64,000 nucleotides of DNA, from contig OZ245011.1 of assembly GCA_965223665.1 (NCBI GenBank), forward strand, positions 159,179 through 223,178, read 5' to 3'. The stretch is from Nitrospinaceae bacterium. GTDB lineage: Bacteria; Nitrospinota; Nitrospinia; Nitrospinales; Nitrospinaceae. Position numbers and translations under genes: made by a program. Positions within the stretch are counted from its first letter, which is position 1; every line of letters starts with the position of its first letter. Positions 34,187 through 51,691 of the stretch are shown here, in pieces. The notes under the pieces were generated by a model, which searched no databases, was not told where the DNA came from, and worked only from the letters and a program-made list of their open reading frames with translations.

Positions 34187-34275
34187 TAAAGTTACCCAAG
34201 TCTTTTTTTCTTGTAACCAGGGAGCGAATAAAGTTTTAGTTCTCCTAATCTGGCATTAATAATATTCGAATTGGT

Positions 34276-35292
34276 TTAGTGGACCTTTAGGATCACTTTA
34301 TTTTCGCGAAATGCTTGATTCATGGCAGGAATGATATTTTCTAAGGGCTCAACATTTGAGATGAGTTGTTTTAATTTATCTTGATGCGAAGAAATTATTT
34401 TTAATGACTTTTCAAATGGTCCACAACGCGATCCTTGAATTTGTATTTCATCAACTACAATTTGAGTAGTGTTTAAGGATTTTTCTGGAAGCCCGCAAGT
34501 AGTTTTTAATGAAAGAGTTCCTTTGGGGCGGACATAATTCAGGGCTTTTGAAATTCCTTCAGGATGACCTGTAGATTCTACGACAATATCTGCTCCAAGT
34601 GAGTCGGTGTTTTTTAGAATTACCTCCTTGGCTTCTTCAGGCGAACACGCAATTGAAGCGCCATAGTTTAACGCCCGGTTTCTTTTGCTTTCACTTCTAG
34701 AAACGGCAATCACTTTTGCACCCATAAGAGACGCAACAAAGGTAATTAAAATTCCTAATCTACCTGGTCCCAAGACTACTAATGTTTCCCCTTTTTTTAT
34801 TGGGGTCATCTCAAAAGTTTGCAACGCGGCTGCCAGGGGTTCAGTTAAAGTTGCAGTTAAGGGAGAAATATTTTCTGGAATTTCATGAAGAACCCCCTCA
34901 GGAACAATGATTTCCTCGGAAAATGCTCCATCTTTATTTATAATGCCTGTAACCGTCCTTTTTAAACAGTGTTCCGGCATACTTCTTTTGCAAGCCTCAC
35001 AAAAAAATTTTGAACAATAAGCTTTACAAGAATTATTAATTTCTGCGGTTACCCTTTTCCCTTCCCATACAGGGTCAACTTCTGCTCCAACCTTTTTTAC
35101 AATGCCAACAAATTCGTGACCACAAACAAGAGGTAAAGAGACAGAATAATCTCCGGAATATAAAGCTAAGTCGGTTCCACAGATACCCGCATATTCTACG
35201 GCTATCTTAACTTCATTTTGTTCTGGTTCTGGGGAATCCTGATTTTGGAAAATAATGGTTTTAGGTGAGGTCAGTACGGCAGCTTTTGGCAA
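34276..35292 (-). CDS. Zinc-dependent alcohol/threonine dehydrogenase family (MDR) oxidoreductase
   Basis: It has GICGTDL, the GHEFVG catalytic Zn site, a structural Zn Cys cluster (CKAYCSKFFCEAC), and the GPGRLG Rossmann motif. The start codon is TTG. Confidence 0.85.
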   Translation of the reverse strand: MPKAAVLTSPKTIIFQNQDSPEPEQNEVKIAVEYAGICGTDLALYSGDYSVSLPLVCGHEFVGIVKKVGAEVDPVWEGKRVTAEINNSCKAYCSKFFCEACKRSMPEHCLKRTVTGIINKDGAFSEEIIVPEGVLHEIPENISPLTATLTEPLAAALQTFEMTPIKKGETLVVLGPGRLGILITFVASLMGAKVIAVSRSESKRNRALNYGASIACSPEEAKEVILKNTDSLGADIVVESTGHPEGISKALNYVRPKGTLSLKTTCGLPEKSLNTTQIVVDEIQIQGSRCGPFEKSLKIISSHQDKLKQLISNVEPLENIIPAMNQAFRENKVILKVH

Positions 35293-35317
35293 TTGAAATT
35301 CCTTTTAAGATTATTTA

Positions 35318-36055
35318 TCAATTACGTCTTTTTTTGGCAGCTTTTTTCTTTTTCCACATTAAAAGCCAGTATTGAATGAGGCGAAGCTTTTGTATTCCTG
35401 AGAATTTTCTTCGTTTGAATTTCGGGGTAGAGTCATATTGCAACCGAGCAATGACTGTAGGTGCAACGGCTTCCTCAATTAAAACTCCTCTTTGCGCGTG
35501 TTCCAGTCTTTTAGACCCGCATACTTCGCGAAAGGCCACCATCAGTCTGCAATCTAAAGGACGGTCCTCATGAATTAAACAAGATTCTTCTGAGTCTAAA
35601 AACGGGCACGGCTGATTGATTACAGTGCGGTACCAATCTACAGTTTCGGGATCAACTCCAGACTCCAATACTTTTGCGACCCGATCAACGGTTTTTTTTG
35701 AACTTTCGAAAACCTCATTAAGATCTAACCCTTTTTTCCTGGCACCGTTAAGCATGCCGTCCCATTCTAATTGACTAATGGTAACTCCTGTATAACAGCA
35801 ATGACCGCAGCCTTTATGACAAGTCAACGCGGGAGCTTTTTCCTGGTAAGCTTTGTCTAGTAAAATCCAAAGTGCTTTAAGGGGAGGAATCTTTTCTTTT
35901 TTGGAAAGAATTTTTGTGTTTTCTAAAAGATGCTCATAAGCATATTGAAGTTCAGCTTCAGAAAATTTCCTTTGAATGAACTTCCGCAATTCTTCGGGGT
36001 CAGTCATCCCCTGTATATAAACCCCATTATGGTCTGAAAAAAGAGTATCAGTCAT
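35318..36055 (-). CDS. YkgJ/UPF0153-type cysteine-cluster protein
   Basis: It has the CHKGCGHCCY and CPFL...CLIHEDRPLDCR motifs and a K/R-rich C-terminal tail. Confidence 0.7.
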   Translation of the reverse strand: MTDTLFSDHNGVYIQGMTDPEELRKFIQRKFSEAELQYAYEHLLENTKILSKKEKIPPLKALWILLDKAYQEKAPALTCHKGCGHCCYTGVTISQLEWDGMLNGARKKGLDLNEVFESSKKTVDRVAKVLESGVDPETVDWYRTVINQPCPFLDSEESCLIHEDRPLDCRLMVAFREVCGSKRLEHAQRGVLIEEAVAPTVIARLQYDSTPKFKRRKFSGIQKLRLIQYWLLMWKKKKAAKKRRN

Positions 36056-36144
36056 TAAATTGAAAAAATAGAATTTTAATTATTTAACTGTTTTATCAAA
36101 ACCCAGATGAAAATGCAGGAAAATTTTAGAATTAGAATCAATTT

Positions 36145-36561
36145 TTACTTGTTTGGGTTTTTGGCGAGATATTTCATTTGTAGTTCATAAATCAATTGAT
36201 CCATAAGTTTGGTTTCTTCGGCATTCAGGTTATTTGTAGTTTTTTCCTTAAGCATAATTAAAATATCAATGGTTTGCTTAACAGCAGGCAAATTCTCCTG
36301 TACCTGACCTGTGGTAGGATCTGCAATATCACCTAAGTAATAAAAAGCAGAAGAGGTGAGAGACAATACAAACGTAGAAAAATTGATTTCTAAAGGTGTG
36401 GTGCCGGCTGAAGAAGACTCCTGTTGCTGTTGTGCAGCCTGTTCTTTGGCTTTTTCTTTCTCCTTTTCTTCATCAAGAGCTTTAATATCATCATCGGACT
36501 GATATGTGGATCGCTTATCTTTAATTACAAAGCCTTCTTCTTCTTTATTTTCTTCAGCCAT
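36145..36561 (-). CDS. DUF1844 domain protein
   Basis: An acidic or Q-rich N-terminus is followed by INFSTFVLSLTSSAFYYLG and a helical C-terminus, as in DUF1844. Confidence 0.7.
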   Translation of the reverse strand: MAEENKEEEGFVIKDKRSTYQSDDDIKALDEEKEKEKAKEQAAQQQQESSSAGTTPLEINFSTFVLSLTSSAFYYLGDIADPTTGQVQENLPAVKQTIDILIMLKEKTTNNLNAEETKLMDQLIYELQMKYLAKNPNK

Positions 36562-36762
36562 TTAAAATTCCTTTTTGGAAAATGCTAATCAATATTAATA
36601 GAAAAATGAGTAATGCAAAAACTTAAACCTATCAAATTCAATAAATCTTCCTTCCCTTAACTTACTGGCGAAGCATAGCAGGTCAAAAAAATGTTGTCAA
36701 TTCATGTCCTGCTTGATCCCTTTGGTTGTTGAGCGTTTAACCTTCTGTTATCATTGGTTATT

Positions 36763-37626
36763 ATGAATTTAAAACGAATTGGGTTCGTAATAATAATGAT
36801 AATTCTCCCTGCCTGCTCTACTCAAAAGATGGCGGTACGTTTAGCCCTTCCTTTGATTGCAGGTCAATATGATTCTATTATTGAAGAAGCAGATCCTCAA
36901 TTTGCTGAAAGAGCAATTCCTTCCAGTTTGAAAATGATGGAGGGATTATTGAAGTCGGACCCTACCAACACTGAACTTCTATTAAAACTTGCAGAGGGAT
37001 TTTGCAACTATTCTTTTGGGTTTGTGGAGGATGAGGATCCAAAGCGTGCTTCTAACTTTTACCTTAGAGGCAGAGATTATGCTCAATCTGCATTGAACAG
37101 TTTAGGAGTAAGTGAAAATCTCAATCAATTGAACTTAGATCAATTGTCCTCTCGTCTAAATTCTTTGAGTAAAGATCAGTTCCCTGCATTATTTTGGTGG
37201 AGTCAATGTGGCGCTGGGTGGTTACTTTTAAACCTGGATAAACTGGAAGCCTTAGCGGCAATATCAAAGATTGAGAAATCTATGGATTCTGTTTTAAAAC
37301 AGGATGAAAGTTTTTACTTCGCAGGCCCCCATTTATTTTTTGGCAGCTTTTATGGTGGCCGATCTAAAATGCTTGGAGGCAACCCTGAGAAATCTTTATC
37401 TCATTTTGAGCGTGGATTAGAGTTGACGCAAAATAAGTTTTTAATGCTTCAGGTTATGTATGCCAAAACTTATGCAGTCCAATCTCAAAATAAAGAAAAG
37501 TTTATTGAATTGTTAAGTGAAGTTTTAAAAGCATCTACGGAAGGTAGGCCTAAACAGAGATTGGCAAATCAAATTGCAAAAATTAAAGCAAAAAAACTAT
37601 TGGAGAAAGTGGATGAACTTTTTTAG
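36763..37626 (+). CDS. TRAP-transporter-associated TPR lipoprotein (TatT family)
   Basis: It has a lipobox (IILPAC), is helical and TPR-like throughout, and sits directly upstream of and overlapping a DctP-type binding protein. The ORF track opens at a TTG at 36754. Confidence 0.65.
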   Translation: MNLKRIGFVIIMIILPACSTQKMAVRLALPLIAGQYDSIIEEADPQFAERAIPSSLKMMEGLLKSDPTNTELLLKLAEGFCNYSFGFVEDEDPKRASNFYLRGRDYAQSALNSLGVSENLNQLNLDQLSSRLNSLSKDQFPALFWWSQCGAGWLLLNLDKLEALAAISKIEKSMDSVLKQDESFYFAGPHLFFGSFYGGRSKMLGGNPEKSLSHFERGLELTQNKFLMLQVMYAKTYAVQSQNKEKFIELLSEVLKASTEGRPKQRLANQIAKIKAKKLLEKVDELF

Positions 37627-38710
37627 TTCCATGTTGGCGAAATTAAATTCAAAATTTGGACTTAAGATTCCAAGTGTATCTTCCAGGACTTTAACATGTA
37701 TTTTATGCGGAATTTTAGCTTCTTTGCTGTTAGCTTTTATTATGGCCACGGTTCAAACCCCTGAAGCCCATGCGGCGAAAGTAATAAAAATAAAATTCTC
37801 AACCTTAGCGCCGGAAGGTTCTTCATGGATGAAACAAATGCACCGCTTAGAAAAAGAAGTGGAGTCTGCCACTCAAGGATCCGTCAAATTTAAATTCTAC
37901 CCTGGTGGCGTATCCGGGGATGAAAAGGATGTCATTCGTAAAATGCGTATTGGCCAGGTCCATGCCGCGGGTTTTACAGGAGTGGGATTAGGAGAAATTC
38001 TTCCGGAAGTAAGAGTCCTGGATCTTCCTTTTTTATTTCATAACGATCGCGAAGTTGAATATGTATATGAAAAAATGACAGATTACTTTTCTAAAAAGTT
38101 TGAGGAAAAAGGTTACATTTTATTGGGTTGGGTGCCGGTCGGCTGGATCCATTTTTTTTCTAAGGATAAAGTCATTACCTTAAGCGATCTTAAAAACTCA
38201 AAAGCCTGGATGTGGGAAGGAGACCCATTGGTTCAAAAGACTTATGAAGAATTAAATGTCAGTCCGCATCCATTATCCATTACGGATGTACTGCTATCTC
38301 TGCAAACGGGAATAATAGATACGGTTTATGCTTCTCCCGTCGGGGCCTTGGCGCTGCAATGGTTTACAAAAGTAAAGTATATGTCCGAATTACAAATGGG
38401 AAATGCGACAGGGGCCGTCTTGATGACTAAACGGATTTATAAAAAATTAAATGCGGAGCAAAAGGAAAAGGTCAAAGCCGTCAGTAAAAAATATTTAAAG
38501 GAATTGGTTAACAAAATTCAGGAAGACAACGATCAAGCCATAGCAGTTATGAAAAATAACGGGTTGAAAATTTCTGAATTGCCCTCTGAGGATGAACGGA
38601 AACAATTCCTTTTGGTAGGTGAAAAGATTAGAGGAAAACTGACAGGTAAACTTTATGATAAGGCTCTACTGGACCAAGTATTAACCCATCTGCAGGCTGT
38701 AAGAAATTAA
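37613..38710 (+). CDS. TRAP transporter substrate-binding protein (DctP family)
   Basis: After a signal anchor it reads KIKFSTLAPEGSSWMKQM...KFYPGGVSGDE..., which is typical of DctP family SBPs. GGAG lies 8 nt before the ATG at 37613, and the start overlaps the tatT-like stop by 14 nt. Confidence 0.8.
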   Translation: MNFFSSMLAKLNSKFGLKIPSVSSRTLTCILCGILASLLLAFIMATVQTPEAHAAKVIKIKFSTLAPEGSSWMKQMHRLEKEVESATQGSVKFKFYPGGVSGDEKDVIRKMRIGQVHAAGFTGVGLGEILPEVRVLDLPFLFHNDREVEYVYEKMTDYFSKKFEEKGYILLGWVPVGWIHFFSKDKVITLSDLKNSKAWMWEGDPLVQKTYEELNVSPHPLSITDVLLSLQTGIIDTVYASPVGALALQWFTKVKYMSELQMGNATGAVLMTKRIYKKLNAEQKEKVKAVSKKYLKELVNKIQEDNDQAIAVMKNNGLKISELPSEDERKQFLLVGEKIRGKLTGKLYDKALLDQVLTHLQAVRN

Positions 38711-38926
38711 CACTCTCTCCCATGTTGATCCCTCAATAAGTAGCCCAATTGGGGTTTGAAATTTAAAAAATTGGTTAAAAGTTCTCCTTTGTTTTAGGTT
38801 ATTTACGTCAACTCTGGCAAAATTTCTGTATTTTTCTGTTGAAAAAAGCCCTCTTTGGGTTATTATTGTGTCGCTCCAATATTGTTTTAATTTCAAACCG
38901 CAAATTTACAATAAAACTCTAATGTC

Positions 38927-41900
38927 ATGGGGGAAATCATGAAATCCAAAATTCATCCAGTTTTCCAATTGTGTGTCCTTTTAGTTTTAGTGTTTTTCCC
39001 CAATTTGGCCTTTAGCGCTAACTTAAACCACACTCAAAAATCCATGGACTCCGTTCTATCGGATCCGGTATTGAGATTGGACTCTGCTAAAGCTTTAGGA
39101 CCAAACCCCTTTGAAAAACAGACTCATGGTTATTTATTAAAGATGGGGACAGTGAATTCCCAAACCGCTTATTTCCCCGAAACATTAAACTCAAAACATC
39201 CGATTGTTCTAAAAACCTTTAATGACACTGTGGAACAATCTTTGGTCTCCGATGAAGTTTATCATGCAGAGCTGAAGGGCAGGTATCTGATTTATCGTGG
39301 TAAACATAATTCTATTTTGTATCGCTATGATGTGGAGAGTCAATCGTTACGTGAGTTCGTGTATTTAGAAAACAAAACACAACTTCAAAAAGATCGTCCT
39401 GTAATTGAGTGGAAGTTTGCCGGAGCAAATCTTAAATCACAAAAAGATGGCAGTGTCATTTTAATCAAGGCGAGAGATATTAAAAATGAAGTACGCAAAA
39501 TATCGAATGATTCGATGGCGAATCGCATTCAACGATTTTTAGAAAAGAAAAATACTTCAACCAAAAATGACTCATTGATTCAGACGTTATTCATTATTCC
39601 CAAACCGGAGTTCATTGACGGCAACCAGGAGCACCATACCCAGGGATTAAATTACAGCGTCCACAATGATCAACTCGCACTTAACCTTGAACCTAACGAA
39701 CAACTTAAATTTCCCTTGTGGGTGGATCCTACAGTTGTTTTAAATTCTAATGATAATTTTGATGTTTTGATTAATGGACAAGATGCGTATGACAATTTTG
39801 GAGGAGTGGTTGTAGGTGATATCGATATTAATGGAGATGGTTTGGATGATGTGATAATTGGCGCTTCTGAGGACGACAATAATGGTGATAGGTCAGGAAG
39901 AGTTTTTATTTTTTTTGGTCGTCTCAATTGGCCCACGCCTCTTACGGCTGATACAAATGCTGATGTCATTATCAATGGAAATAGTGTGAATGGGATTTTA
40001 GGAAGAACTATTTCTGCTGGCGACATGAATAACGACGGAATCGATGACGTGATTCTTGGCCAAAATGATAATCCGGGAAGGGTTTTCGTTTTTTTTGGAC
40101 GTAATGTATGGGCTTCTTCGCTAGATATAGAAACAGATGCCAACGTGATAATTAATGGAACTGGCTTTGCAGATGGATTTGGAAACAATTTATCAGTTTT
40201 AGGAGATATAAATGGAGATGAAGTTGATGATTTAATTATTGGAGCACTTTTTGACGATAATAGTGGAAATGATTCTGGTAGCGCTTTTGTATTTTTTGGC
40301 CGTAGTTCCTGGTCTTCTCCTTTAAATGCTGACAATGACGCTGATGTCATTATAAATGGAACAAATGCGGGAGGCCTTTTTAGTGGAGGTTTAGGGAGAG
40401 GTGATTTTAACGGGGATGGATTAGGTGATTTTATTGTCCGAGCCAATGGAGGTGAATTTATATTTTTTGGCCGTAACTCTTGGTCTTCGCCATTAAATGC
40501 AGATAGTGATGCAGATGTAATTATTGATGTTCGGGGTTCAATTTCTCAGCTAGGAGGAGATATCAATAATGATGGTTTCGACGATTTAATAGTATATGCA
40601 AATAGAGAGGTCCTTATTTTTTTTGGTCGAAATGTTTGGCCATCTTCTCTCAATTCCGAAAATGCAAATATTATTTTAGATGGGGTCTTAATCACGGCTA
40701 TTTTAAATGATATTAACGAAGATGGCATTGATGACCTTATTGTGGGTGAACCCTCTGCTGATGTTAGTTTTCCTCAAGTTGGAAAAGTTTATGTTCTTTA
40801 TGGCCGAGATACTTGGCCTTCTTCATTTGAACTTGATGAATTTGCCGATATCGTTATTAATGGTGTAAAAGCAGAAGGAGGATTTGGGGGAGCAGTAACA
40901 CCTACCGGCGATGTTAATGGAGATGGTTTTGAAGATTTACTGATAGGAGCCCGTATGCATGATATCCGTGGGCAAGAGTCAGGAAGCGCTTATATTTTCT
41001 TTGGTCCTTTTAAACCTAATAACTTAAGTTTTTCAGATGCCCAAGACTCCTACATTCGACAAACTTCTCCAAGTACTAACTTTGGAAATGAAGCAGTTTT
41101 ACTTGCAGATGGAGTGGATCAAGATCCCAGTAATGGATTATTTGGTGAAGTAAGATCAGTAATTTCCTGGGATGTTTCAGATATTCCCCCCAATGCCACA
41201 ATCGAGTCAGCTACAATCGATTTATTTCATACTAATACAAGTACGGGGTCTTATGGAATCTATGAGGCTAAAGTGCCCTGGTCAGAAGAAAGTGTGACTT
41301 GGAATAATTTTGACGACCCGAATAATACAGGTACAGAATTATTGGGATTTGTGAATTCCTCCGGACCCACAAGTTTTAATCAAGCGGGATTGGATCTAAT
41401 ACAAGGTTGGATCGATGGAAGTATTCCCAATAATGGGATTATTATAAAAAGTATTGATACAAATGATGGAATAGATATTAATTCAAGTGAGGCAGCAGAT
41501 AATCAACCCGTACTTAATGTGAAATTTTCGAATGACCCTCCACCCTCTCTTCAGGTTACGGACAATTTTCAAGATGCAAAGGATGCTTATGTTTATAGCT
41601 TTACTCCAGATCAAAATTATGGGGATGATGTTAAATTAATATCCTCAGGAAATGAGCTTGCTTCTGAAGATCCCTTAAAACATCCTACTCCAATATACTC
41701 TTTGATTTCCTGGGATATTTCGTCTATTCCACAGGATGCGGTAATCCAATCAGTAAAGATCTCTTTTAACGTAACAAACGATAGTGAACAAGATTTCGAA
41801 ATTTACGAGATGATAAATAGGTGGGAAGAAGATGTTGTGACCTGGGGAAACTTTAGTTTTGGTCCGAGAGGAAGTGTGGGAAGGGAATTGTTTGGATCTT

Positions 41901-43210
41901 TCTCACCTGGGACTTTAGGTGAACATATTGTCGAATTAAATGATAAAGGTGAAGAAATAGTCCGTGAATGGATAAGAGGGACTGTCGCAAACAATGGTTT
42001 AATCATTAGGATGGAAAGAGGGGGAGAGCTCCTAGACCAACGTGATAGAGTTGAAATGAATTCAAGTGAGGCTGCTACAGGAAATCCTAAAATAGAGGTT
42101 ACTTATTTGACCTCACCTCCTCCCGGGGAAACCACAGTGGATTTGGTGAATGCGGAGGATTCGTATGTACGTGAGACATCGCCGACAGTGAATTATGGTA
42201 GTGAACCGGTTTTGTTGGCGGATGGTTCGGATGAAGATCCCGACAATAGCAATCTAGGTGAATTGTTGTCGGTTATTTCCTGGGATGTATCGGGCATTGC
42301 TAATACTTCGGTCGTGCAAAATGCACAGGTGACTCTGGATCTGTTCAATCCCAGTTCAGGGGAATACAAACTGTATGCTGTCAACACTCCTTGGGCAGAA
42401 GGGACGGTTTCCTGGAACGATGTGGGGTCGGACATTGGTTCTACGGTTCTGGGTACTATTGCTGCTGGGTCGTTAGGATCGACTGTGATTAACTTGAATG
42501 CCTCCGGTTTGGCCTTAGTGCAGGGTTGGGTTGATGGGACAATCCCTAATAACGGATTTGCGGTTAGAACCGGTGGCGCGACAAATGGGATTGATTTTAA
42601 TTCCAGTGAAGCAGGTTCCGGTCAACCTAAACTGACGATCACTTATTCGGACTCCGGTCCCCCTCCTCCAACCCCTGTGGAGGTCAACATTGGAAACGCC
42701 GAGGATTCGTATCTGCGTGAAACTTCTGGCAACACCAATTATGGAAGTGAAACTCTATTGCAGGCAGATGGAGTGGATCAAGATCCCGGCAATGGGAATT
42801 ATGGTGAATTACGACCGGTGCTTTCCTGGGATGTATCGTCAATACCTACAGATGCAGTGGTGGATTCAGCGAGTATTAATCTGAGTTTAACGGATTCCAG
42901 TACCGGCAGTTACGAACTGTTTTCTGTGAACAGTGCCTGGACCGAAGGGACTGTAGTGTGGAATGACCTGGACGGGCCCGGTGATACGGGATCTACAGTT
43001 ATTGGAACCATTACTTCCGGAATCATAGGTAATACGGTGATTAACCTGAATGCCTCTGGGGTTGCACTGGTCCAGGGCTGGATTGATGGATCGATTTCTA
43101 ACAACGGGATTATTATCAAATCCGGGGGTACCAACAACGGAATCGACATCAGTTCCAGTGAAGCCAGTTCCGGACAACCTATACTGAATGTGACCTACAC
43201 GCAACCTTGA
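38927..43210 (+). CDS. Large secreted protein (1427 aa): signal peptide, unknown ~240-aa N-domain, 7 FG-GAP repeats, 4 DNRLRE-like modules
   Basis: The signal peptide is KIHPVFQLCVLLVLVFFPNLAFSA. Seven D-x-N-x-D-G-x-D-D blades are present (DINGDGLDDVIIGA, DMNNDGIDDVILG, and so on). Four ~180-aa modules end in NSSEA..QP.L.V.Y. An alternative start is the ATG at 38939, preceded by GGGGGAA. Confidence 0.9.
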   Translation: MGEIMKSKIHPVFQLCVLLVLVFFPNLAFSANLNHTQKSMDSVLSDPVLRLDSAKALGPNPFEKQTHGYLLKMGTVNSQTAYFPETLNSKHPIVLKTFNDTVEQSLVSDEVYHAELKGRYLIYRGKHNSILYRYDVESQSLREFVYLENKTQLQKDRPVIEWKFAGANLKSQKDGSVILIKARDIKNEVRKISNDSMANRIQRFLEKKNTSTKNDSLIQTLFIIPKPEFIDGNQEHHTQGLNYSVHNDQLALNLEPNEQLKFPLWVDPTVVLNSNDNFDVLINGQDAYDNFGGVVVGDIDINGDGLDDVIIGASEDDNNGDRSGRVFIFFGRLNWPTPLTADTNADVIINGNSVNGILGRTISAGDMNNDGIDDVILGQNDNPGRVFVFFGRNVWASSLDIETDANVIINGTGFADGFGNNLSVLGDINGDEVDDLIIGALFDDNSGNDSGSAFVFFGRSSWSSPLNADNDADVIINGTNAGGLFSGGLGRGDFNGDGLGDFIVRANGGEFIFFGRNSWSSPLNADSDADVIIDVRGSISQLGGDINNDGFDDLIVYANREVLIFFGRNVWPSSLNSENANIILDGVLITAILNDINEDGIDDLIVGEPSADVSFPQVGKVYVLYGRDTWPSSFELDEFADIVINGVKAEGGFGGAVTPTGDVNGDGFEDLLIGARMHDIRGQESGSAYIFFGPFKPNNLSFSDAQDSYIRQTSPSTNFGNEAVLLADGVDQDPSNGLFGEVRSVISWDVSDIPPNATIESATIDLFHTNTSTGSYGIYEAKVPWSEESVTWNNFDDPNNTGTELLGFVNSSGPTSFNQAGLDLIQGWIDGSIPNNGIIIKSIDTNDGIDINSSEAADNQPVLNVKFSNDPPPSLQVTDNFQDAKDAYVYSFTPDQNYGDDVKLISSGNELASEDPLKHPTPIYSLISWDISSIPQDAVIQSVKISFNVTNDSEQDFEIYEMINRWEEDVVTWGNFSFGPRGSVGRELFGSFSPGTLGEHIVELNDKGEEIVREWIRGTVANNGLIIRMERGGELLDQRDRVEMNSSEAATGNPKIEVTYLTSPPPGETTVDLVNAEDSYVRETSPTVNYGSEPVLLADGSDEDPDNSNLGELLSVISWDVSGIANTSVVQNAQVTLDLFNPSSGEYKLYAVNTPWAEGTVSWNDVGSDIGSTVLGTIAAGSLGSTVINLNASGLALVQGWVDGTIPNNGFAVRTGGATNGIDFNSSEAGSGQPKLTITYSDSGPPPPTPVEVNIGNAEDSYLRETSGNTNYGSETLLQADGVDQDPGNGNYGELRPVLSWDVSSIPTDAVVDSASINLSLTDSSTGSYELFSVNSAWTEGTVVWNDLDGPGDTGSTVIGTITSGIIGNTVINLNASGVALVQGWIDGSISNNGIIIKSGGTNNGIDISSSEASSGQPILNVTYTQP
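39790..41010 (+). repeat. Seven tandem coding repeats (FG-GAP blades, period ~155-200 nt)
   Basis: The DNA motif TTTTTTGG(C/T)CG(T/A) (which encodes FFGR) recurs near 39913, 40093, 40293, 40467, 40620, 40800 and 41000. Each is preceded by a Ca-binding-like DxNxDGxDD loop. Confidence 0.85.
41025..43207 (+). repeat. Four tandem DNRLRE-like (CBM96-like) modules separated by Pro-rich linkers
   Basis: Approximate module boundaries are 41025, 41550, 42127 and 42676. Shared motifs are D(S/A)Y(I/V/L)R(Q/E)TSP..N(F/Y)G, SWD(V/I)S.IP, VPW.E..V.WN, QGW(I/V)DG.I.NNG and NSSEA. The linkers are DPPPS, SPPPG and GPPPPTP. Confidence 0.85.
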
Positions 43211-43220
43211 ACTTAAACCA

Positions 43221-43259
43221 AATCCACCTCTCAATTTTGGGAGGTGGATTTATTTTCTT
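43221..43259 (+). terminator. Rho-independent terminator after the FG-GAP/DNRLRE gene
   Basis: A perfect 10-bp stem (AATCCACCTC, 10-nt loop, GAGGTGGATT) is followed by TATTTTCTT. Confidence 0.8.
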
Positions 43260-43436
43260 ATCTTCTCCAAAAAATCCCCTGTTACTATTTTTGATAACTA
43301 TGGTCACTTTTTCATACAAAAATCTCTTAGTCCCTTTTTCTCAACACAGTTCAATTGGTCGAAAACAGTTGTTTAGAAAATTTATATGACTGATTTATCC
43401 TTCTTTCCCTAGAGCAATTTCCCAAAAATAAGGAAT

Positions 43437-43452
43437 TGGCATTAAATATGCT
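43437..43452 (+). promoter_or_regulatory. Candidate sigma54 -24/-12 element (TGGCATTAAATATGCT)
   Basis: The GG and GC are spaced exactly as in the TGGCACG-N4-TTGCW consensus. TGGCA is perfect and ATGCT matches TTGCW at 4 of 5 positions. It lies ~380 nt upstream of the metalloprotease ATG, which is far. Confidence 0.2.
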
Positions 43453-43830
43453 GTTTCGGATACTAGATATAAGTATTGGAATTTATTTGGTTCCAATTGC
43501 TTTGCTCCCATTAGAAAAAATATATTCAGATTTCTTTAAAGAATTTTTTTATAAAAGTTTTATTCAAAAAATTTAATTTTCAAACAATAAAAAAGATTTT
43601 GTTTTTCTTAATCTCATTAGGTCGATAGTTTTGAGAATATTGCAAGGAAAACAGGTTGTATATTACTCAATCCTAAAACAATGGGTTAAGTGAATTGTTG
43701 CTGCTTGTGTTCAGTAAGTAAAGTTTTACCTGAATGCTTTTTTCAATTCCAGACTTTTCTATTTATAAAAGTGTGGATAAATTTTTGAATACTTTGGATT
43801 CGTATTTTCATTTTTAAATCGAGGTCAAGA

Positions 43831-46518
43831 ATGAACCGGTATTTTTCTGGGAATTTTAATAATTTTTTTAAAAAAGTTTTGGTGGTTCTTTTAATCATGT
43901 TTGGTTTGGTCACCATTTTTAGCAGTTCATTGTTAGCCAAACCTAAATCAAAGGCGCCGAATTTATTTTTTGACCCACCCGCAAGCGATGTCCCATCAAA
44001 AAGTTTTTCAAGGGAAGGAATTAAGAAGAGTAGAGCTGCTCTTAGGACCAGAAATGTAGATATAAAAATAAATTTAAGAAAATATAAACGAATTCTACTT
44101 AATCTTTTCGAGGATATGAATTTAGAAGCGGAAAAAACTCACGTTCATATGGGGTCAAGGGGGGAAATGACCTGGAGTGGAAAACTTAAAGATGTCGAGT
44201 TTGGAACAGTTGATATTACGAAGTATAAAGGTTCTTGGGCCGGACGAGTGAGTTGGGATGGCCATTTATTTTTATTACGTCCGAGACCTAAAGGTGGAAT
44301 AACAATTGAAGAAATTGATGCAGGACTTTTACCCCCTCATAGAGACCCATTAGTTCCTGATATTGATTTTGAGCCGTTAAAAGAAAATGAAAATAATGGA
44401 GAAAATAGTCCACCGATTGCTTTGGACAGTGGCGAAACGATCGACCTCATGGTGGTCTACACTCAGGCTACCCAGGCTATTTATGGAACTAGCGGAATTG
44501 AGTCGATGATTATTAATGCAGTGGATTCTGCAAATACAGCTTATGCCAGAAGCCAAATTACAGCTCGGTTGAGGTTAGTCCATATGGCAGAAATTGATTA
44601 CACAGAAACCGGTGACATGGGTGATGCTTTAGATGAAATAACCGATGGAAATATTGCAGGAGTGGATGCTCTGAGAGACCAATACGGTGCTGATATTGTC
44701 TCTATGATTGATGAGGATTCCAATTATTGCGGTATTGCCTGGGTTATGACACCGGGTTGGTTGTCTAATAGTATGGAAAGATTAGCATTCAATGTCACGT
44801 ACAGCGGATGTTTGGGCAACCATACTATGACTCATGAGATTGGTCATAATGAAGGTTGTGCACATGATCGGGCGAACTCAAGTGTGCCGGGATCGTATCC
44901 ATACTCCCATGGGCATCGTGATACGGTTACTGGTTTTCGAACTATTATGTCTTATTCTTGTCCTGGAGGAACCTGCCCAAGAATTTCTAACTTTTCGAAT
45001 CCCAATGTTAGTTTCAGTGGAGCTCCTACAGGTATTGACCACAATTCTGACCCGGACAATTCTGCTGATAATGCTCTGTCCATGAACAATACTGATCAAA
45101 TTGTTGCCAATTGGAGGCAAGCCGTTGAACTCTCTGAACCCGATCCTCCAAGTGCTTTGGCTGCGAATGCCGTTTCAGGGGAACAAATTGATCTTGATTG
45201 GATTGATGAATCCGACAACGAGGATGGATTTTTATTAGAGCGTTCAGAAGATAATTCTAATTGGATTGAAATTGCCAGCTTGACACCAAACTCTACGAGC
45301 TACGAAGACTTGGGATTGGAAAGTGGTTTTACCTATTACTATAGAATCCGTGCGTTCAATGGAGCGGGAAACTCAGAGTTTTCAAATGTAGTGCAAGAAA
45401 CTACTTTGTCCTCTGGAATAATTAATCAAAGTTTTATAAGCAGTAAAGATTCTTATATAGTCCAAACATCTCCAAATCAAAATTTTGGAAATGCTAGTTT
45501 TCTTATGGCCGATGGGGTAGCGTTAGATGCTAATAACGGAAAATATGGGGAAGTTATGGCAGTGTTGTCCTGGGATGTTTCTTCACTTCCCAATAATGCT
45601 GTCGTTCAATCTGTTGGTATAACTGTAAACATGGAGAATACCAGTTCTGCTGATTACAATTTGTTGGAGGCAAAAGTTCCATGGTCTGAAGGAAATGTTG
45701 ATTGGAACGATTTTAGTGGTTCTTCTTCTATAGGGAACTCGGTATTGGGAGTTATCCCTCCATTGGTGTTGGGTGAACAGACATTGAATTTAAATCAAGC
45801 AGGGATAAACCTGGTACAGGGTTGGATCAGTGGAAGTGTCTCTAATCATGGCTTAATTGTCAGGACTAGTGGAACTAATAATGGAATTATTTTTAGTTCA
45901 AAAGAGTCTTCAAATCCTAAACCGACAATTCATATATCTTATACATCAGGATCTGCTCCCCAAACCGTTACAGTGAACTTTCAAAATAATGGTTCTTATT
46001 CCGGGACTCAAGATGCCATCCTTCGCCAAAGGTCGCCTAGTAGCAACTATTCTAATGATACAGAATTAGTGGCAGATGGAGTGGAACAAGATCCAAGTAA
46101 TGGGCGATATGGTGAAGTTATGTCAGTTTTGTCCTGGGATGTTTCTTCGATTCCAAACAATGCGGTGGTCCAATCGGCAAGCATCACTTTTAATATGGTT
46201 GATCCAAGTTCGGCAGATTACCATTTTTATGAAGCGAAAGTCCCCTGGGCCGAAGGATCTGTAACTTGGGATGATTTTTCAAATACATCTTCCCTGGGTA
46301 GTGCAATACTTGGAATTATTCCACCTTTGATTTGGAATACTCAGACGTTTAATCTAAACTCCTCAGGGATTAATTTATTGCAGGGTTGGATTGATGGAAG
46401 CATCTCGAATAATGGATTAGTGGTTAGAACCAGTGGAACTAACAATGGAATTATATTTAATTCCAGTGAGGCTTCTTTTGGACAGCCTATTCTTAGTATT
46501 ACGTATGACCAACCCTGA
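43831..46518 (+). CDS. Secreted or anchored metzincin (reprolysin-like) zinc metalloprotease with an FN3 domain and two DNRLRE-like modules (895 aa)
   Basis: The N-terminal hydrophobic anchor is VLVVLLIMFGLVTIFSSSLLA. HEIGHNEGCAHD (an HExxHxxGxxHD motif) lies at nt 44833..44868, with a downstream TIMSY Met-turn candidate. The FN3 domain reads PSALAANAVSGEQIDLDW...YYYRIRAFNGAGNS. Two modules are homologous to those of the upstream gene. Confidence 0.9.
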   Translation: MNRYFSGNFNNFFKKVLVVLLIMFGLVTIFSSSLLAKPKSKAPNLFFDPPASDVPSKSFSREGIKKSRAALRTRNVDIKINLRKYKRILLNLFEDMNLEAEKTHVHMGSRGEMTWSGKLKDVEFGTVDITKYKGSWAGRVSWDGHLFLLRPRPKGGITIEEIDAGLLPPHRDPLVPDIDFEPLKENENNGENSPPIALDSGETIDLMVVYTQATQAIYGTSGIESMIINAVDSANTAYARSQITARLRLVHMAEIDYTETGDMGDALDEITDGNIAGVDALRDQYGADIVSMIDEDSNYCGIAWVMTPGWLSNSMERLAFNVTYSGCLGNHTMTHEIGHNEGCAHDRANSSVPGSYPYSHGHRDTVTGFRTIMSYSCPGGTCPRISNFSNPNVSFSGAPTGIDHNSDPDNSADNALSMNNTDQIVANWRQAVELSEPDPPSALAANAVSGEQIDLDWIDESDNEDGFLLERSEDNSNWIEIASLTPNSTSYEDLGLESGFTYYYRIRAFNGAGNSEFSNVVQETTLSSGIINQSFISSKDSYIVQTSPNQNFGNASFLMADGVALDANNGKYGEVMAVLSWDVSSLPNNAVVQSVGITVNMENTSSADYNLLEAKVPWSEGNVDWNDFSGSSSIGNSVLGVIPPLVLGEQTLNLNQAGINLVQGWISGSVSNHGLIVRTSGTNNGIIFSSKESSNPKPTIHISYTSGSAPQTVTVNFQNNGSYSGTQDAILRQRSPSSNYSNDTELVADGVEQDPSNGRYGEVMSVLSWDVSSIPNNAVVQSASITFNMVDPSSADYHFYEAKVPWAEGSVTWDDFSNTSSLGSAILGIIPPLIWNTQTFNLNSSGINLLQGWIDGSISNNGLVVRTSGTNNGIIFNSSEASFGQPILSITYDQP
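45420..46515 (+). repeat. Two tandem DNRLRE-like modules (paralogues of 41025..43207)
   Basis: The motif series matches the upstream modules: DSYIVQTSPNQNFGN / DAILRQRSPSSNYSN, LSWDVSS(L/I)PNNAVVQS, EAKVPW.EG.V.W.DF, QGWI.GS.SN.GL.VRTSGTNNGI. Confidence 0.85.
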
Positions 46519-46556
46519 ATGGATGTGTTTGGCGAAAGTTGAAGTTGGATAGAAGC

Positions 46557-48206
46557 CTAGACTGTAAATTCTTTTTGTCGAGTAGCCCAATCTGCCAGTT
46601 GTTCGCGATTGATTTTCGCGTTGTGGCGGATATCTACAGGGAAAGCGGGGTGAAAAAAGAAGTTTTGGATATGTTCCACAGAAGGGTTTTCTTTCTTTAA
46701 TAATTCAAGTTCTTCAATGAGCTTTTTTTTAAATTGCGTATTGTTTATTTTCCTTACCTTTTCTAATTCTATGACAATGGCGGGTATAATTTTTCTATTT
46801 TGCTTTAGGCCTATTAAGGCTGACCTTTGGACTTCGGGGTGAGTATTAAAAATTGATTCACAAGGGATGGTGAATAAGGTTTTATCGTTTGTGACGACAC
46901 GGTGACTTTTTCTTCCGCAAAACCAAAGTCTCCCTTTTGAATCCAGATATCCCACATCACCCATTCGATGCCAAATTTGATTTCCATTTTTGATTTTAGA
47001 CAATTGATTAAATCTTTCTAGATTGAAGTATTTTTTGGTAGTCCAAGGGGCATGGACAACAACTTCACCAATTTCTCCCTGTGGCAATTCTATTGAACTA
47101 TTCCATTCTGGAATGGGATTATCTGAGATAGAAATTATTTTTAAATCAAGCCCTTCAACGGGTTTACCCACACAAGTTCCTTTTCCAAATTGGGTTTGTT
47201 CCCAAGTTTCTGACAATATCATTCTATGGTCAATCACGGCAACTGGAAGTGCTTCTGTGGCACCATAAGGTGTGAAAATATTTGCCTCAGGTTCGAGAAT
47301 TTTTTCTAATTCTTTTAACAAAGATCCTGGCACCGGAGCGCCCGCTATTAGTATCCTTTTTAAAGGGGTAAGATTTACCTCTTGATCCGAGCAATATTGA
47401 GAAATAGTTTTCCATAATGCAGGTGACCCAAAGCTACTTGTTATGGAAAAGTCTTTTATATGCTTTATAATTTTTTCTGGATTTACTTTTGCCGGCTGAG
47501 TGGGATCCATGTCAGGTATAACACTCGTCATTCCTAAAGCAACATTGAAAAGTGCGAAAAGTGGAAAGGTAGGCAAATCAAACTCTCCTGATTGAATATT
47601 AAATAAGCGGCGAAGTAACAGAACTTGATGATAAAACATCTTATGGTTATATATGACTCCTTTGGGAGGTCCAGTGCTTCCACTTGTAAATAATATTGCG
47701 GCTGGATCTTCAGGTTTAACCTCTTGTGACTGAAAAGTAGAGCTTCCATTTGTCTCAACCTGATCCAATTTTGGCCCTCCCCAGAACCAACGCCTACCTG
47801 CAGTAATGAAATTCTGAATGGATTTAAATGCTGCAGGATAAAGAAACTTGAATGCATGTGCTAAAGGAACCGCAATCATTGTTTGAGGTTTAACGTTGGT
47901 AATGCATTTCAGTATGTTTTTTTTTCCAAGACCGGGGTCTATTAATACTGGAATTGCTCCAATTTTAAATAACGCAAAAGTTGTCGCAATAAATTCTATT
48001 CCAGAGGGTATCATTAAAAGTACATGCTGATTTTTCTTGACCCCGCTTTTTATCAGACCGGATGCTAATAAATTTGATTTTTTATTGAGATCCTCATAGG
48101 TGATTTGTTCACAAGAATTATTTCGGGGAACGATGATAGCGGGATTATTGTGTATTTCCCCAGCTAGGGTCTCCAATAAAAAGGAAATGTTTTCAGGATT
48201 TTTCAT
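46557..48206 (-). CDS. AMP-dependent synthetase/ligase (fatty acyl-CoA ligase family)
   Basis: It has the AMP-binding signature LFTSGSTGPPKGV, YGATE, and a C-terminal GDVGYLDSKGRLWFCGRK. Confidence 0.85.
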   Translation of the reverse strand: MKNPENISFLLETLAGEIHNNPAIIVPRNNSCEQITYEDLNKKSNLLASGLIKSGVKKNQHVLLMIPSGIEFIATTFALFKIGAIPVLIDPGLGKKNILKCITNVKPQTMIAVPLAHAFKFLYPAAFKSIQNFITAGRRWFWGGPKLDQVETNGSSTFQSQEVKPEDPAAILFTSGSTGPPKGVIYNHKMFYHQVLLLRRLFNIQSGEFDLPTFPLFALFNVALGMTSVIPDMDPTQPAKVNPEKIIKHIKDFSITSSFGSPALWKTISQYCSDQEVNLTPLKRILIAGAPVPGSLLKELEKILEPEANIFTPYGATEALPVAVIDHRMILSETWEQTQFGKGTCVGKPVEGLDLKIISISDNPIPEWNSSIELPQGEIGEVVVHAPWTTKKYFNLERFNQLSKIKNGNQIWHRMGDVGYLDSKGRLWFCGRKSHRVVTNDKTLFTIPCESIFNTHPEVQRSALIGLKQNRKIIPAIVIELEKVRKINNTQFKKKLIEELELLKKENPSVEHIQNFFFHPAFPVDIRHNAKINREQLADWATRQKEFTV

Positions 48207-48230
48207 TCAAAGATTTTCTGGAGGTAAGTA

Positions 48231-48980
48231 TCATATACCCAAAGCGGTTTTGGCTAATTGTAATGTGACTTTTTTCTTTTGTTTAAAAGATTCTTCATTT
48301 AAACGGATAACTGAATTTTTTATGGTGGAATAGTCACGCGGAATTCTATTTAAAAGGAAAGTGATTACTTTATCTGGGATTCCTAATCCAACATCATTAC
48401 CCAGTTTTTTTATTATTTGATGGGTGGTTTGGTCATCCATTGGATATAGTTCTACCGTCATTCCCCAAAGAAAACGTGAAACAAGAAAGCTTTCAATATC
48501 TTTTAATTGATTTGGAGATTTGCGGCCAGTAAAGACGATTACCTTTTCATGGTCTCTAAGAAAATTGTATAAAGTGTAAAGCTTTTCTTGAGCCAGGGTA
48601 TGACCTGCAATTAAATCCACATCATCCAATAAAAAATAGTCTACCGATTGAAGTTGTAAAAGGGTTTGATTGGCGGTTTCATTTTTATCCTGTTCCATGG
48701 ATTGAATGAAATCAGGGCAATGCATATATAAAGTTTTTACATGGGGAAATTGCTCAGCAAGATAATTACCCATAGAAATAAGCAAATGTGTTTTGCCTTG
48801 ACCTTTATTACCGCTGATGTAGATAGACTGGTGTTGCAAACCCTTGTTTGAACAGATTTCTTTGCAAGTCCTTAGAGTCAATTCAGACTGCGTGGAAGTG
48901 AAAAAGTTTTCAAAGCGATACTCAGGTTTGGCTGGAAAGTTGAGGAGAAGTTGATCTTTAATAGGTGATGACTGTTGCAT
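48231..48980 (-). CDS. hda: DnaA-related AAA+ protein (Hda-like regulatory inactivator)
   Basis: It has the Walker A GNKGQGKTHLL, the Walker B YFLLDDVD and a DnaA domain III-like layout without a DNA-binding domain IV, at ~249 aa. Confidence 0.7.
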   Translation of the reverse strand: MQQSSPIKDQLLLNFPAKPEYRFENFFTSTQSELTLRTCKEICSNKGLQHQSIYISGNKGQGKTHLLISMGNYLAEQFPHVKTLYMHCPDFIQSMEQDKNETANQTLLQLQSVDYFLLDDVDLIAGHTLAQEKLYTLYNFLRDHEKVIVFTGRKSPNQLKDIESFLVSRFLWGMTVELYPMDDQTTHQIIKKLGNDVGLGIPDKVITFLLNRIPRDYSTIKNSVIRLNEESFKQKKKVTLQLAKTALGI

Positions 48981-48994
48981 GAGGATTTAATTTT

Positions 48995-49034
48995 AAAAAA
49001 TTAATGGGCGCTCTCAAAAAAAGTGAGAGCGCCT
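48995..49034 (-). terminator. Rho-independent terminator after the lipoprotein/DUF2065 pair
   Basis: A perfect 10-bp stem (GGCGCTCTCA, 8-nt loop, TGAGAGCGCC) is followed on the minus strand by CATTAATTTTTT. Confidence 0.6.
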
Positions 49035-49065
49035 AAATAATAAACCTGGAAACAGGGTTGAATCT

Positions 49066-49509
49066 CTATTTAGGGCCTACCTGAACTTCCGCCCTGGTTT
49101 TAGCAAATGAGTGAGAAACAATAACCGTACATAGTTCCTTTTGATTTTCATATAACATTACAGTTCCATCATGTTCAATAATCCTTATTAACTTCCAACC
49201 TTTTGCCAGCATCTCACTTCTATAAAACTCAACCAAATCTTCAGAGGAACTTTTAACATAAAAATATAAACGCCCAACTTTTACGTTTCCCGACCCAGAT
49301 TCGTATATAAATGTTCGGTCTCTATCTAGAGAATAATTTTTTGGAATAGGAATGTTGGAAAATTGTATGGCAAGAGGTGGTGGAGTTTGGTTGCTTATTG
49401 CGGAGGGCTGAGTTTGGGTTCGTTTTCTTTTTGAGCAACCCCATAAAACTAATGAAGTTATTAATATTAGGATGAAAAATAATTTTTGTTTTCGATTTAA
49501 AATAATCAT
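49066..49509 (-). CDS. Putative lipoprotein, function unknown
   Basis: From the ATG at 49509 the product is MIILNRKQKLFFILILITSLVLWGC, with an L-W-G-C lipobox. The ORF track opens 11 codons earlier. Confidence 0.55.
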   Translation of the reverse strand: MIILNRKQKLFFILILITSLVLWGCSKRKRTQTQPSAISNQTPPPLAIQFSNIPIPKNYSLDRDRTFIYESGSGNVKVGRLYFYVKSSSEDLVEFYRSEMLAKGWKLIRIIEHDGTVMLYENQKELCTVIVSHSFAKTRAEVQVGPK

Positions 49510-49513
49510 AGTT

Positions 49514-49702
49514 CTACATCGCCCTCCCAAAGTATACAACAATTAATCCAATGATCATTAAAAAGAATCCAATAAGCCGTATCGTTCCGGCTTCAAATTC
49601 CAAAAGTTTTTTAGCAAATTCTTTTACATGGTTTGGGGAACAAAAATAAGGAATTCCCTCAAAAACCATCATTAAACCTAAAGCAGTAAGAAAGAAACTC
49701 AT
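49514..49702 (-). CDS. DUF2065 family small membrane protein
   Basis: It is 62 aa with two TM helices, the GLMMVFEGIPYFCSP motif and IRLIGFFLMIIGLIVVY, as in DUF2065. Confidence 0.6.
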   Translation of the reverse strand: MSFFLTALGLMMVFEGIPYFCSPNHVKEFAKKLLEFEAGTIRLIGFFLMIIGLIVVYFGRAM

Positions 49703-50145
49703 ATATTTTTCTAATTATCTGATTATTGAAAAATTAACATAAGGTCCACCTCGAAAAAGATCACCTGTTAAAGGAACAATAATCCAGGAAATTATGGTGA
49801 CATTAATTGAATCGGGTCTGGCAAATTATGACTCAATCGGTCAAGCGGGGTCAATAAATTTAATAGGTAGAACCCCTTTGAAATATGGGGGTTGTAAATC
49901 GGGAAATGAGCATTATATAATAATCTTGTTGCATGCTTTCAATCTTGTCAGATTAAGATAATTTTCTCTAATAAGCTGATTTTCAATAAATTTAGGTTTC
50001 TAAAGTTTTGAATAGGGGCCAATTAGCGGTTAATATTTCTTTTGGCTGATTAATGGTGAATTTTCCTTCTTATAAAAGTTGTTATTAAATTGATAACTAA
50101 TCTGAAGTTTTGCCTAATGGGTAAATTTTAATTCGAGGATTTCTA

Positions 50146-51597: not shown

Positions 51598-51649
51598 ATT
51601 TTAATTTAATAAGGAAATTATCTTTGACAGGTTTTTCCTAATCATTCAT

Positions 51650-51687: not shown

Positions 51688-51691
51688 CATT

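Follow-up and report, generated by a model that had tools for sequence, protein, structure and literature searches.

DNRLRE domains were first defined in archaeal cell-surface proteins and in a disaggregatase (PMC2447325; PMC9971899). TM6-N4, the founder of the CBM96 family, binds alginate by a basic groove, with Lys27 and Arg36 as the residues key to recognition (PMC9971899). A second described system that bears on the present work is the biofilm-associated metzincin Mep72 (PA2783) of Pseudomonas aeruginosa. It carries two carbohydrate-binding domains in tandem, is type II-secreted and processed, and is slowed in its autolysis by alginate (PMC4334185). Here we analyse a locus of two adjacent genes in a marine Nitrospinaceae bacterium that has features of both systems. 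The locus lies in a stretch of 64,000 nucleotides (assembly GCA_965223665.1, contig OZ245011.1, positions 159,179 to 223,178), which we call the window. Gene 1 encodes an N-domain, an FG-GAP propeller and four DNRLRE/CBM96 modules, and gene 2 encodes a reprolysin-like metzincin, a fibronectin type III (fn3) domain and two more copies of the same module. We find that this module belongs to the DNRLRE/CBM96 family by profile and by predicted fold, that it recurs on other proteins of the same genome, and that the middle of gene 1 is deeply divergent from its counterpart in a second Nitrospinaceae genome (the sister genome) while both ends are conserved.

Nitrospinota are the main marine nitrite oxidisers, and to our knowledge almost nothing is known about their cell-surface and extracellular proteins. 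The window had been described before from its letters alone (the original prediction below), and the positions and lengths given there for both genes match the list of open reading frames (ORFs) exactly. The coordinates of all features are collected in Table 1.

A shared DNRLRE/CBM96 module

The original prediction assigned the repeated module to the DNRLRE/CBM96 type, and both profile searches and the predicted fold agree with this assignment. The NCBIfam profile DNRLRE_dom (NF033679, cut-off 34 bits) finds four stretches in gene 1 (336.3 bits) and two in gene 2 (141.9 bits), and Pfam CBM96 (PF24517, cut-off 26 bits) scores 156.2 bits in gene 1 and 43.5 bits in gene 2. Aligned with each other, the six modules show pairwise identities of 34-60% and 25 invariant columns, and each scores 247-279 bits against a hidden Markov model built from all six, a likeness well outside what chance would give. 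The ladder of motifs that had been ascribed to every copy is kept in five of them and in part by G1-M2, which is without the ADG.D.DP.NG loop motif. The extra acidic loop is genuine: compared with more distant DNRLRE domains, the Asp-rich loop holds a 7-residue insertion (P-x-N-G-x-Y/F-G). Module copies within one gene are 60% identical and copies in different genes 43-51%. At the DNA level the modules are 61-79% alike in the repeat families reported, and they are therefore old duplicates and not an assembly artefact.

An AlphaFold2 model of G1-M4 based on an alignment of 20 sequences has a mean confidence (pLDDT) of 96.5 and a predicted template-modelling (TM) score of 0.91. Its best match in the PDB is 8WAB, a chondroitinase module that binds chondroitin sulfate (TM 0.73, E 2e-9), and it also matches 7VBO, the alginate-binding CBM96 founder (TM 0.66, E 2.5e-7). 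The fold matches that rank next are TGF-beta/BMP prodomains, which the founder structure likewise matched (PMC9971899). Sequence identity between the modules and the two solved members is 17-19%. The profile of 20 sequences nevertheless finds both structures by sequence, with E values of 2e-8 (2.3e-8 to 7VBO) and 9e-7; a profile of the six modules alone finds no PDB relative by sequence. We take membership of the modules in the DNRLRE/CBM96 family and fold as established.

The same module subfamily is present on at least three further proteins of this genome, all encoded outside the window, with modules that are 42-57% identical to the six described here. In P0159 an N-domain and a propeller precede an Ig-like domain, and one module and a Cys domain come after it; P0241 and P0242 are simpler, with a single module between a signal peptide and a small Cys domain, and no enzyme part. 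In all three, a Cys-containing segment of about 85-95 amino acids follows the module at the C-terminal end. The segments of P0241 and P0242 have the motif CP.GKVV.GGG…C in common, and neither the Cys domain of P0241 nor that of P0159 has a Pfam or NCBIfam match. The combination of N-domain, propeller and DNRLRE modules is seen in this lineage only (P0121, P0122, P0159 and P0277). In the sister genome, two P0159-like genes stand in tandem (L003, 6644-12950), each apparently broken by a frameshift that could reflect misassembly or pseudogene status.

Given this distribution, the module looks like a lineage-wide address tag and not like a link specific to one pair of proteins. The explanation that we favour, and to which we give somewhat better than even chances, is that the locus encodes two separate exported modular proteins which share a multivalent address-tag module. 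Gene 1 would encode an adhesin-like protein whose working part is a rare N-terminal beta-sandwich together with a 7-blade, Ca2+-loaded FG-GAP propeller, and gene 2 a metzincin endopeptidase of the Mep72/M72 kind, in which a prodomain is presumed at the N-terminal end and fn3 would serve as spacer. Both proteins would be exported by the Sec route, and both end in tandem copies (4 and 2) of what appears to be a lineage-specific DNRLRE/CBM96 subfamily. The module would most likely serve to dock a set of at least five exported proteins on a single polymer of repetitive structure, which could be an envelope or matrix polysaccharide of the cell itself or one on marine particles, and shared docking would bring the propeller protein and the protease to the same place, so that the two are plausibly co-localised through it. 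Of this account, the architecture, homology, fold, synteny, terminator, mosaic divergence and selection pattern are observed, and the export route, ligand, docking, protease activity and substrate are presumed.

Several observations weigh against this explanation. We infer a polymer-binding role for the modules, and it is their fold and family that would suggest binding of a glycan. All six are strongly acidic, however (net charge -7 to -19, pI about 4), and the basic groove of the CBM96 founder with its Lys27 and Arg36 is not found in them: Lys27 corresponds to the Asp of the ADG motif and Arg36 to Leu or Val, in an alignment of low identity that makes the residue mapping approximate. With acidic modules that are without the founder's key basic residues, even "polysaccharide" as the kind of ligand is therefore an extrapolation. 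Elsewhere, a DNRLRE domain is found on a polyhydroxybutyrate depolymerase, with a neutral surface, and the domain is the closest fold of BamH. The window holds no genes for secretion systems or polysaccharide synthesis, and a route across the outer membrane is thus not indicated by it. Finally, the complete architectures are carried by two genomes only, which makes evolutionary inference thin. Because the inserted loop is Asp-rich, we propose that binding is possibly Ca2+-mediated; since the modules are acidic throughout and have this extra loop, such binding, or a non-anionic ligand, would be likelier than alginate binding in a Lys/Arg groove as in the founder.

Mosaic divergence of gene 1 between two genomes

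Synteny with the sister genome covers the gene pair as well as its flanks, and adjacency and order are kept. Collinear DNA homology of about 84% extends over 34001-39778, breaks, and resumes over 42113-56516. The interval between is a cassette made of the propeller, M1 and M2, which in the sister genome is replaced by a deeply divergent allele (L001, 6024-8326), with identities of about 50-55% in nucleotides and 33-56% in amino acids. A sliding profile of identity over 30 codons has sharp steps at about aa 280 and aa 1065, that is, at domain borders. Outside the cassette the sequences are conserved: the flanking genes are 81-97% identical in protein between the two genomes, gene 2 is 88% identical to its ortholog (P0002), and every domain of gene 2 is 82-96% identical, the catalytic domain 96%. 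The propeller of the positional ortholog (38%) is no closer to that of gene 1 than the propellers of paralogs are (about 41%), and no donor of the cassette is found in either genome or among any of the retrieved sequences.

The substitution pattern separates the same segments. The proportion of synonymous differences (pS) is 0.68-0.73 in the cassette, which is near saturation, compared with 0.36-0.57 in flanks and neighbours, and the ratio of nonsynonymous to synonymous change (dN/dS) in the cassette is 0.14-0.40, below 1. For the protease dN/dS is 0.03 and for M3 it is 0.04, and M3, M4 and the modules of gene 2 together span 0.04-0.09; the values for M3, M4 and the protease (0.03-0.05) show strong purifying selection. 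Because synonymous sites in the cassette are near saturation while dN/dS stays below 1, we read the divergence as replacement and reject simple positive selection in place. Read from the alignment, it bears the signature of recombination that replaced the cassette by a deeply diverged allele. Two other sources of variation were considered and rejected. A diversity-generating retroelement does not agree with a segment of 2.3 kb, near-saturated synonymous sites and no reverse transcriptase gene nearby, and gene conversion from a paralog of the same genome does not agree with the absence of any paralog closer than about 41%. This replacement is a new finding and the most distinctive feature of the locus. 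In terms of the favoured explanation, the exposed propeller with M1 and M2 would be exchanged between lineages by recombination, and the N-domain, the M3-M4 "anchor" and the protease would be retained. As a side observation, M3-M4 (42137-43207), which is also the best conserved part of gene 1 (91-96% in amino acids), stands out by its GC content at third codon positions (GC3): it is 0.46, while the cassette has 0.23-0.28 and the window's other genes have 0.27-0.37, with a separate origin and biased gene conversion as possibilities.

A variable middle between a conserved N-domain and conserved M3-M4 fits an exposed surface protein with a fixed anchor. This raises the question of whether the modules serve to hold the proteins on the producer itself, bound to an envelope or S-layer glycan, as SLH domains or the DNRLRE surface proteins of Methanosarcina are; both proteins would then be displayed at the cell surface and not sent to a substrate. 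Such self-anchoring overlaps with the favoured explanation, which leaves the polymer open; as an account of its own we hold it possible, if rather unlikely. The near-invariance of M3-M4 beside a variable exposed cassette is the pattern expected of an anchor and an outward part, the module is common to five proteins of a single genome, of which P0241 and P0242 have no enzyme part, and the domain was first defined on archaeal cell surfaces, as mentioned above. The two relatives that have been characterised experimentally are, on the other hand, substrate-targeting carbohydrate-binding modules on lyases, and no envelope-glycan genes are linked to the locus. A bolder version, a "docked secretome", seems doubtful to us: the acidic DNRLRE subfamily, with its extra loop of Ca2+ type, would then have a new specificity and hold five or more exported proteins, the protease among them, on a single polymer of envelope or matrix, and gene 1 would be a variable adhesin whose conserved handles (N-domain and M3-M4) let populations exchange the propeller, M1 and M2 as a unit of specificity, under pressure from phages or grazers or for particle matching.

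The propeller protein, the protease and their adjacency

Now we consider the parts of the two proteins that precede the modules. The N-domain of gene 1 is rare: an exhaustive scan of 1.84 billion cluster representatives gives 33 relatives, for the most part in sequences labelled Nitrospinota, and several of the named ones come from that phylum. In full-length relatives it stands at the N-terminus, and in most of these FG-GAP repeats come next. Its AlphaFold2 model is an all-beta sandwich (pLDDT 78), whose fold matches are weak (TM at most 0.37) and lead to non-catalytic N-terminal beta-sandwiches of GH139, GH121, GH95 and GH92 enzymes. The domain had been called unplaceable from sequence, and it stays so; it has no Pfam or NCBIfam match, and with fold matches of such low TM no fold family or function is assigned. 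For a scan of loci, an alignment of 14 N-domain sequences was too divergent and a version with five sequences was used instead, which finds matches in the sister genome alone, with three paralog loci.

The propeller that follows had been predicted to have seven blades of the FG-GAP (integrin-alpha) type with Ca loops. Pfam finds the seven repeats, and the exact loop D-x-N-x-D-G-x-x-D occurs six times (at aa 300, 366, 493, 545, 595 and 662), the seventh loop, near aa 428, being degenerate. The net charge of the propeller is -48, and gene 1 as a whole is very Asp-rich and has Pro-rich linkers. Homologs of the propeller number in the thousands and carry variable C-terminal adhesion modules (HYR, Calx-beta, cadherin-like, RTX). 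An antisense ORF of 258 amino acids (39670-40446, minus strand) lies wholly inside the region that codes for the FG-GAP repeats and is most likely a compositional by-product of these repeats and no gene.

For gene 2, the N-terminus could be a cleavable signal peptide (cleaved between …SSSLLA and KP) instead of the anchor assumed at first. The N-region that follows has no Pfam or NCBIfam match, and is possibly a prodomain. The next part was described as a reprolysin-like metzincin with a TIMSY Met-turn, and this holds: three Pfam profiles exceed their cut-offs over aa 202-394 (Reprolysin_5 with 73.6 bits against 27, Reprolysin_3 with 64.3 against 22.4, Reprolysin_4 with 59.5 against 22). The zinc site HEIGHNEGCAHD is at aa 335-346 (44833-44868), and the Met-turn TIMSY, within RTIMSY, is at aa 371-375 (44941-44955) with Met373 as its Met; both motifs are intact, and invariant in the alignment of the protease family. 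The predicted fn3 domain likewise passes its Pfam gathering score, and the region matches titin and FN3con in the PDB with E values down to 9e-15.

Relatives of the protease core (N-region and metzincin, often with fn3) are widespread in metagenomes. Their C-terminal modules are varied (PKD, HYR, cadherin-like, Ig-like, dockerin); the tail of two DNRLRE modules is found in gene 2 and its sister ortholog only (P0001 and P0002), and a distant relative (P0115) has a single CBM96. Several homologs with 51-53% identity are named "peptidyl-Asp metalloendopeptidase" by the Joint Genome Institute (JGI), which are source names only (MEROPS M72), and the nearest relatives by sequence in the PDB are weak adamalysin matches around HExxH. 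Against the Mep72 model (NF052434) gene 2 scores 150.8 bits, where the equivalog cut-off is 645, and positions 1-245 of the 573 in the model align with aa 203-442. Judged by this alignment, the catalytic domain is homologous to Mep72 yet not an equivalog. Gene 2 looks like an active Mep72/M72-like endopeptidase.

How closely the two proteins work together is a separate question. The original prediction saw a dedicated pair, in which the propeller protein would bind a target and the protease next to it, held on one polymer with it by the shared module, would cut it. In its favour are the adjacency and order kept in the sister genome, the use of one module subfamily on both genes, and fusions elsewhere of relatives of the protease core to FG-GAP repeats or whole propellers in one polypeptide, which is evidence of the Rosetta-stone type: three proteins have FG-GAP_3 repeats (P0078, P0080 and P0087) and two have 6-7 FG-GAP_2 repeats (P0100 and P0113). 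A further protein, P0207, joins 14 FG-GAP repeats to a matrixin.

The DNA between the genes argues against such a pair. An intrinsic terminator follows gene 1; its stem is kept in the sister genome, where the changes fall in the loop and the outer stem. An AT-rich spacer of about 580 bp, also conserved in the sister genome, separates the genes. Blocks of this spacer (about 43270-43480) are near-identical between the genomes and better conserved than synonymous sites. One such block holds the sigma-54-type candidate for gene 2, about 380 nt upstream of its ATG and kept in the sister genome; it is the sole match to TGGCAY-N5-WTGCW on both strands of the 64-kb window, against 0.22 expected, for a pattern that was defined post hoc, and we treat a sigma-54 promoter for gene 2 as a lead. 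Gene 1 has a different, sigma-70-like candidate, kept in the sister genome but for a single position of the -10 hexamer. Close to it, CTGGCAAAATTTCTGTA at 38815-38830 (plus strand), upstream of gene 1, has a sigma-54-like -24 box (CTGGCA…TGTA) with TGT for TGC at -12, hence without the canonical GC; it is kept in the sister genome and overlaps the region of the sigma-70-like candidate at 38839-38866. With terminator and spacer both conserved, co-transcription is not predicted, and the two genes are probably separately transcribed units.

Evidence from other genomes points the same way. We examined 61 metagenome loci of protease relatives (461 kb in total, about 314 kb of it flank, 21 loci of at least 10 kb), and in 0 of the 61 is there an N-domain, a propeller like that of gene 1 or a DNRLRE module as neighbour. 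Conversely, no metzincin lies within 10 kb at three other loci with N-domain and propeller, two of the sister genome and one of a relative, P0133 (L003, L004 and L005). The pair itself is present in the one sister genome. Also against a dedicated pair are the presence of the module on at least three other proteins of the genome, the greater likeness of module copies within a gene than between the genes, and the swap of the propeller, which has no matching change in gene 2. We conclude that the genes are neighbours in this lineage and not an obligate, co-inherited, co-transcribed pair. What stands of the original claim is the conserved synteny and the fusions elsewhere; the terminator and spacer, the other carriers and the unpaired relatives do not agree with it, and a dedicated pair now seems unlikely to us.

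The idea that gene 1 serves the protease as substrate, inhibitor or chaperone, modelled on Mep72, which needs the product of its neighbour BamI against toxicity and binds it (PMC4334185), we consider very improbable: the Pro-rich linkers and Asp-richness of gene 1 would suit an enzyme of the peptidyl-Asp type, as JGI names several homologs, but gene 1 encodes a 1427-aa multidomain protein with no similarity to BamI-type inhibitors, the genes are by prediction not co-transcribed as bamI-mep72 is, the N-region of gene 2 could itself serve as prodomain, and relatives of the protease are without such a neighbour.

Setting of the locus and known systems

The pair is flanked on its 5' side by a DctP gene and a TAtT-like gene, and on its 3' side by genes for an AMP-dependent ligase, Hda, two DegP proteins and LigA. 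Core chromosomal genes make up the remainder of the window (def, pnp, truB, infB, nusA, rimP, proS, rseP, lolA, purN, greA, sdh-like, gcvP), and it was fair to call the pair the only accessory-looking locus in it. No secretion-system, exopolysaccharide or mobile-element genes are found in the 64 kb, and Rfam finds no RNA family anywhere in the window, the conserved spacer included. Two ORFs elsewhere in the window deserve mention in their own right. The first (23894-26119, minus strand, 741 aa) joins a response-regulator receiver, a sigma-54-interaction AAA+ domain with lid and a complete LpxC (UDP-3-O-acyl-GlcNAc deacetylase); this looks unusual, and either a genuine fusion or an overlooked stop codon or frameshift may lie behind it. 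The second (19077-20822, minus strand, 581 aa) is a PEP phosphomutase fused to a MobA-like nucleotidyltransferase domain, which suggests phosphonate biosynthesis and activation, possibly for decoration of surface glycans or lipids.

Table 1. Features of the locus, in window coordinates, with amino acid identity to the gene 1 ortholog of the sister genome
Feature	Coordinates	Strand	Description	Identity to sister ortholog
Sigma-70-like promoter candidate, gene 1	38839..38866	+	TTGAAA-16-TATTAT; best scan site, 10/12; consensus match only	
Gene 1	38927..43210	+	1427 aa; predicted secreted, N-domain / FG-GAP propeller / 4x DNRLRE; ORF, Pfam, NCBIfam; exact protein P0121	
Gene 1 Sec-type signal peptide	38927..39016	+	aa 1-30, predicted cleavage between …PNLAFS and AN; read from sequence	
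Gene 1 N-domain	39017..39781	+	aa 31-285, 255 aa; rare all-beta domain	80%
Variable cassette (propeller + M1 + M2)	39779..42112	+	deeply divergent allele in sister genome	
Seven-blade FG-GAP beta-propeller	39782..41023	+	aa 286-699; Pfam FG-GAP, 7 stretches, 104 bits	44% (38% when set against paralogs)
G1-M1	41024..41530	+	DNRLRE/CBM96 module, aa 700-868	56%
G1-M2	41561..42109	+	divergent DNRLRE/CBM96 module, aa 879-1061; 34-36% to other copies	33%
G1-M3	42137..42649	+	DNRLRE/CBM96 module, aa 1071-1241	96%
G1-M4	42683..43207	+	DNRLRE/CBM96 module, aa 1253-1427; copy used for modelling	91%
Intrinsic terminator after gene 1	43220..43251	+	14-bp stem then T-run; starts 10 nt past gene 1 stop	
Sigma-54-type -24/-12 promoter candidate, upstream of gene 2	43437..43452	+	TGGCAT-TAAAT-ATGCT = TGGCATTAAATATGCT; GG-N10-GC spacing	
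Gene 2	43831..46518	+	895 aa; predicted secreted, metzincin / fn3 / 2x DNRLRE; ORF, Pfam, NCBIfam; exact protein P0001	
Gene 2 signal peptide or signal anchor	43831..43938	+	aa 1-36; read from sequence	
Gene 2 N-region	43939..44430	+	aa 37-200; basic, pI 9.1; conserved across protease family; absent from Mep72 model	
Reprolysin-like metzincin catalytic domain	44431..45120	+	aa 201-430; Reprolysin_5 73.6 bits	
Fibronectin type III domain	45142..45399	+	aa 438-523; Pfam fn3 32.8 bits vs 25, E 8e-8	
G2-M1	45427..45945	+	DNRLRE/CBM96 module, aa 533-705	
G2-M2	45991..46515	+	DNRLRE/CBM96 module, aa 721-895	

Comparison with described systems places each part of the locus near something familiar. 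Gene 1 is like mosaic genes for adhesins and outer-membrane proteins in its sharp breakpoints at domain borders, its conserved flanks and its near-saturated middle; it differs in that two alleles are known, no donor is found, and no silent cassettes or recombinase lie nearby. With bacterial FG-GAP (integrin-alpha-like) surface proteins it shares seven FG-GAP repeats with Ca loops, and it differs from them by the rare N-domain before the propeller and the DNRLRE modules after it. Like the dockerin and cohesin of cellulosomes, SLH domains and carbohydrate-binding modules in general, the module here is one family reused on different exported proteins, often in tandem for avidity. The difference is that the host is a chemolithoautotroph-type Nitrospinaceae and not a polymer degrader, and that a receptor or scaffold and its ligand are conjectural here.

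Mep72 is the closest counterpart of gene 2, with a homologous catalytic domain and the same plan of a secreted metzincin followed by two tandem polymer-binding domains (secretion and binding both being predicted for gene 2). Gene 2 has in addition an N-region of 160 amino acids and an fn3 domain, and its C-terminal modules are DNRLRE modules, to which the Mep72 model gives no match. Next to gene 2, and by prediction transcribed apart from it, stands the gene for a giant propeller protein, where Mep72 has the small, co-transcribed inhibitor BamI.

Taken as a whole, the locus shows that Nitrospinaceae have large adhesin-like and protease proteins with a private version of a probable polymer-binding module, that this module is spread over several predicted exported proteins of one genome, and that the exposed part of the adhesin appears to have been exchanged by recombination with its presumed anchor frozen. 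That modular secreted proteins have binding modules in common is well known, and the finding extends known biology and does not overturn it. The nearest relatives of the module itself are the CBM96/DNRLRE modules of 8WAB and of 7VBO, the latter from the Defluviitalea alginate lyase Dp0100. The likeness lies in the profile scores and matches, in a beta-sandwich fold at TM 0.66-0.73, and in the arrangement of tandem modules at the C-terminal end of secreted enzymes. The carriers here, in contrast, are a protease and a propeller protein and not polysaccharide lyases, and where the founder has a basic groove the present modules are acidic, do not keep Lys27 and Arg36, and have the 7-residue Asp-rich insertion. 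If identified, the ligand of this module would point to the component of matrix or particles used for attachment, and the young CBM96/DNRLRE family would gain a third specificity and a context outside CAZymes.

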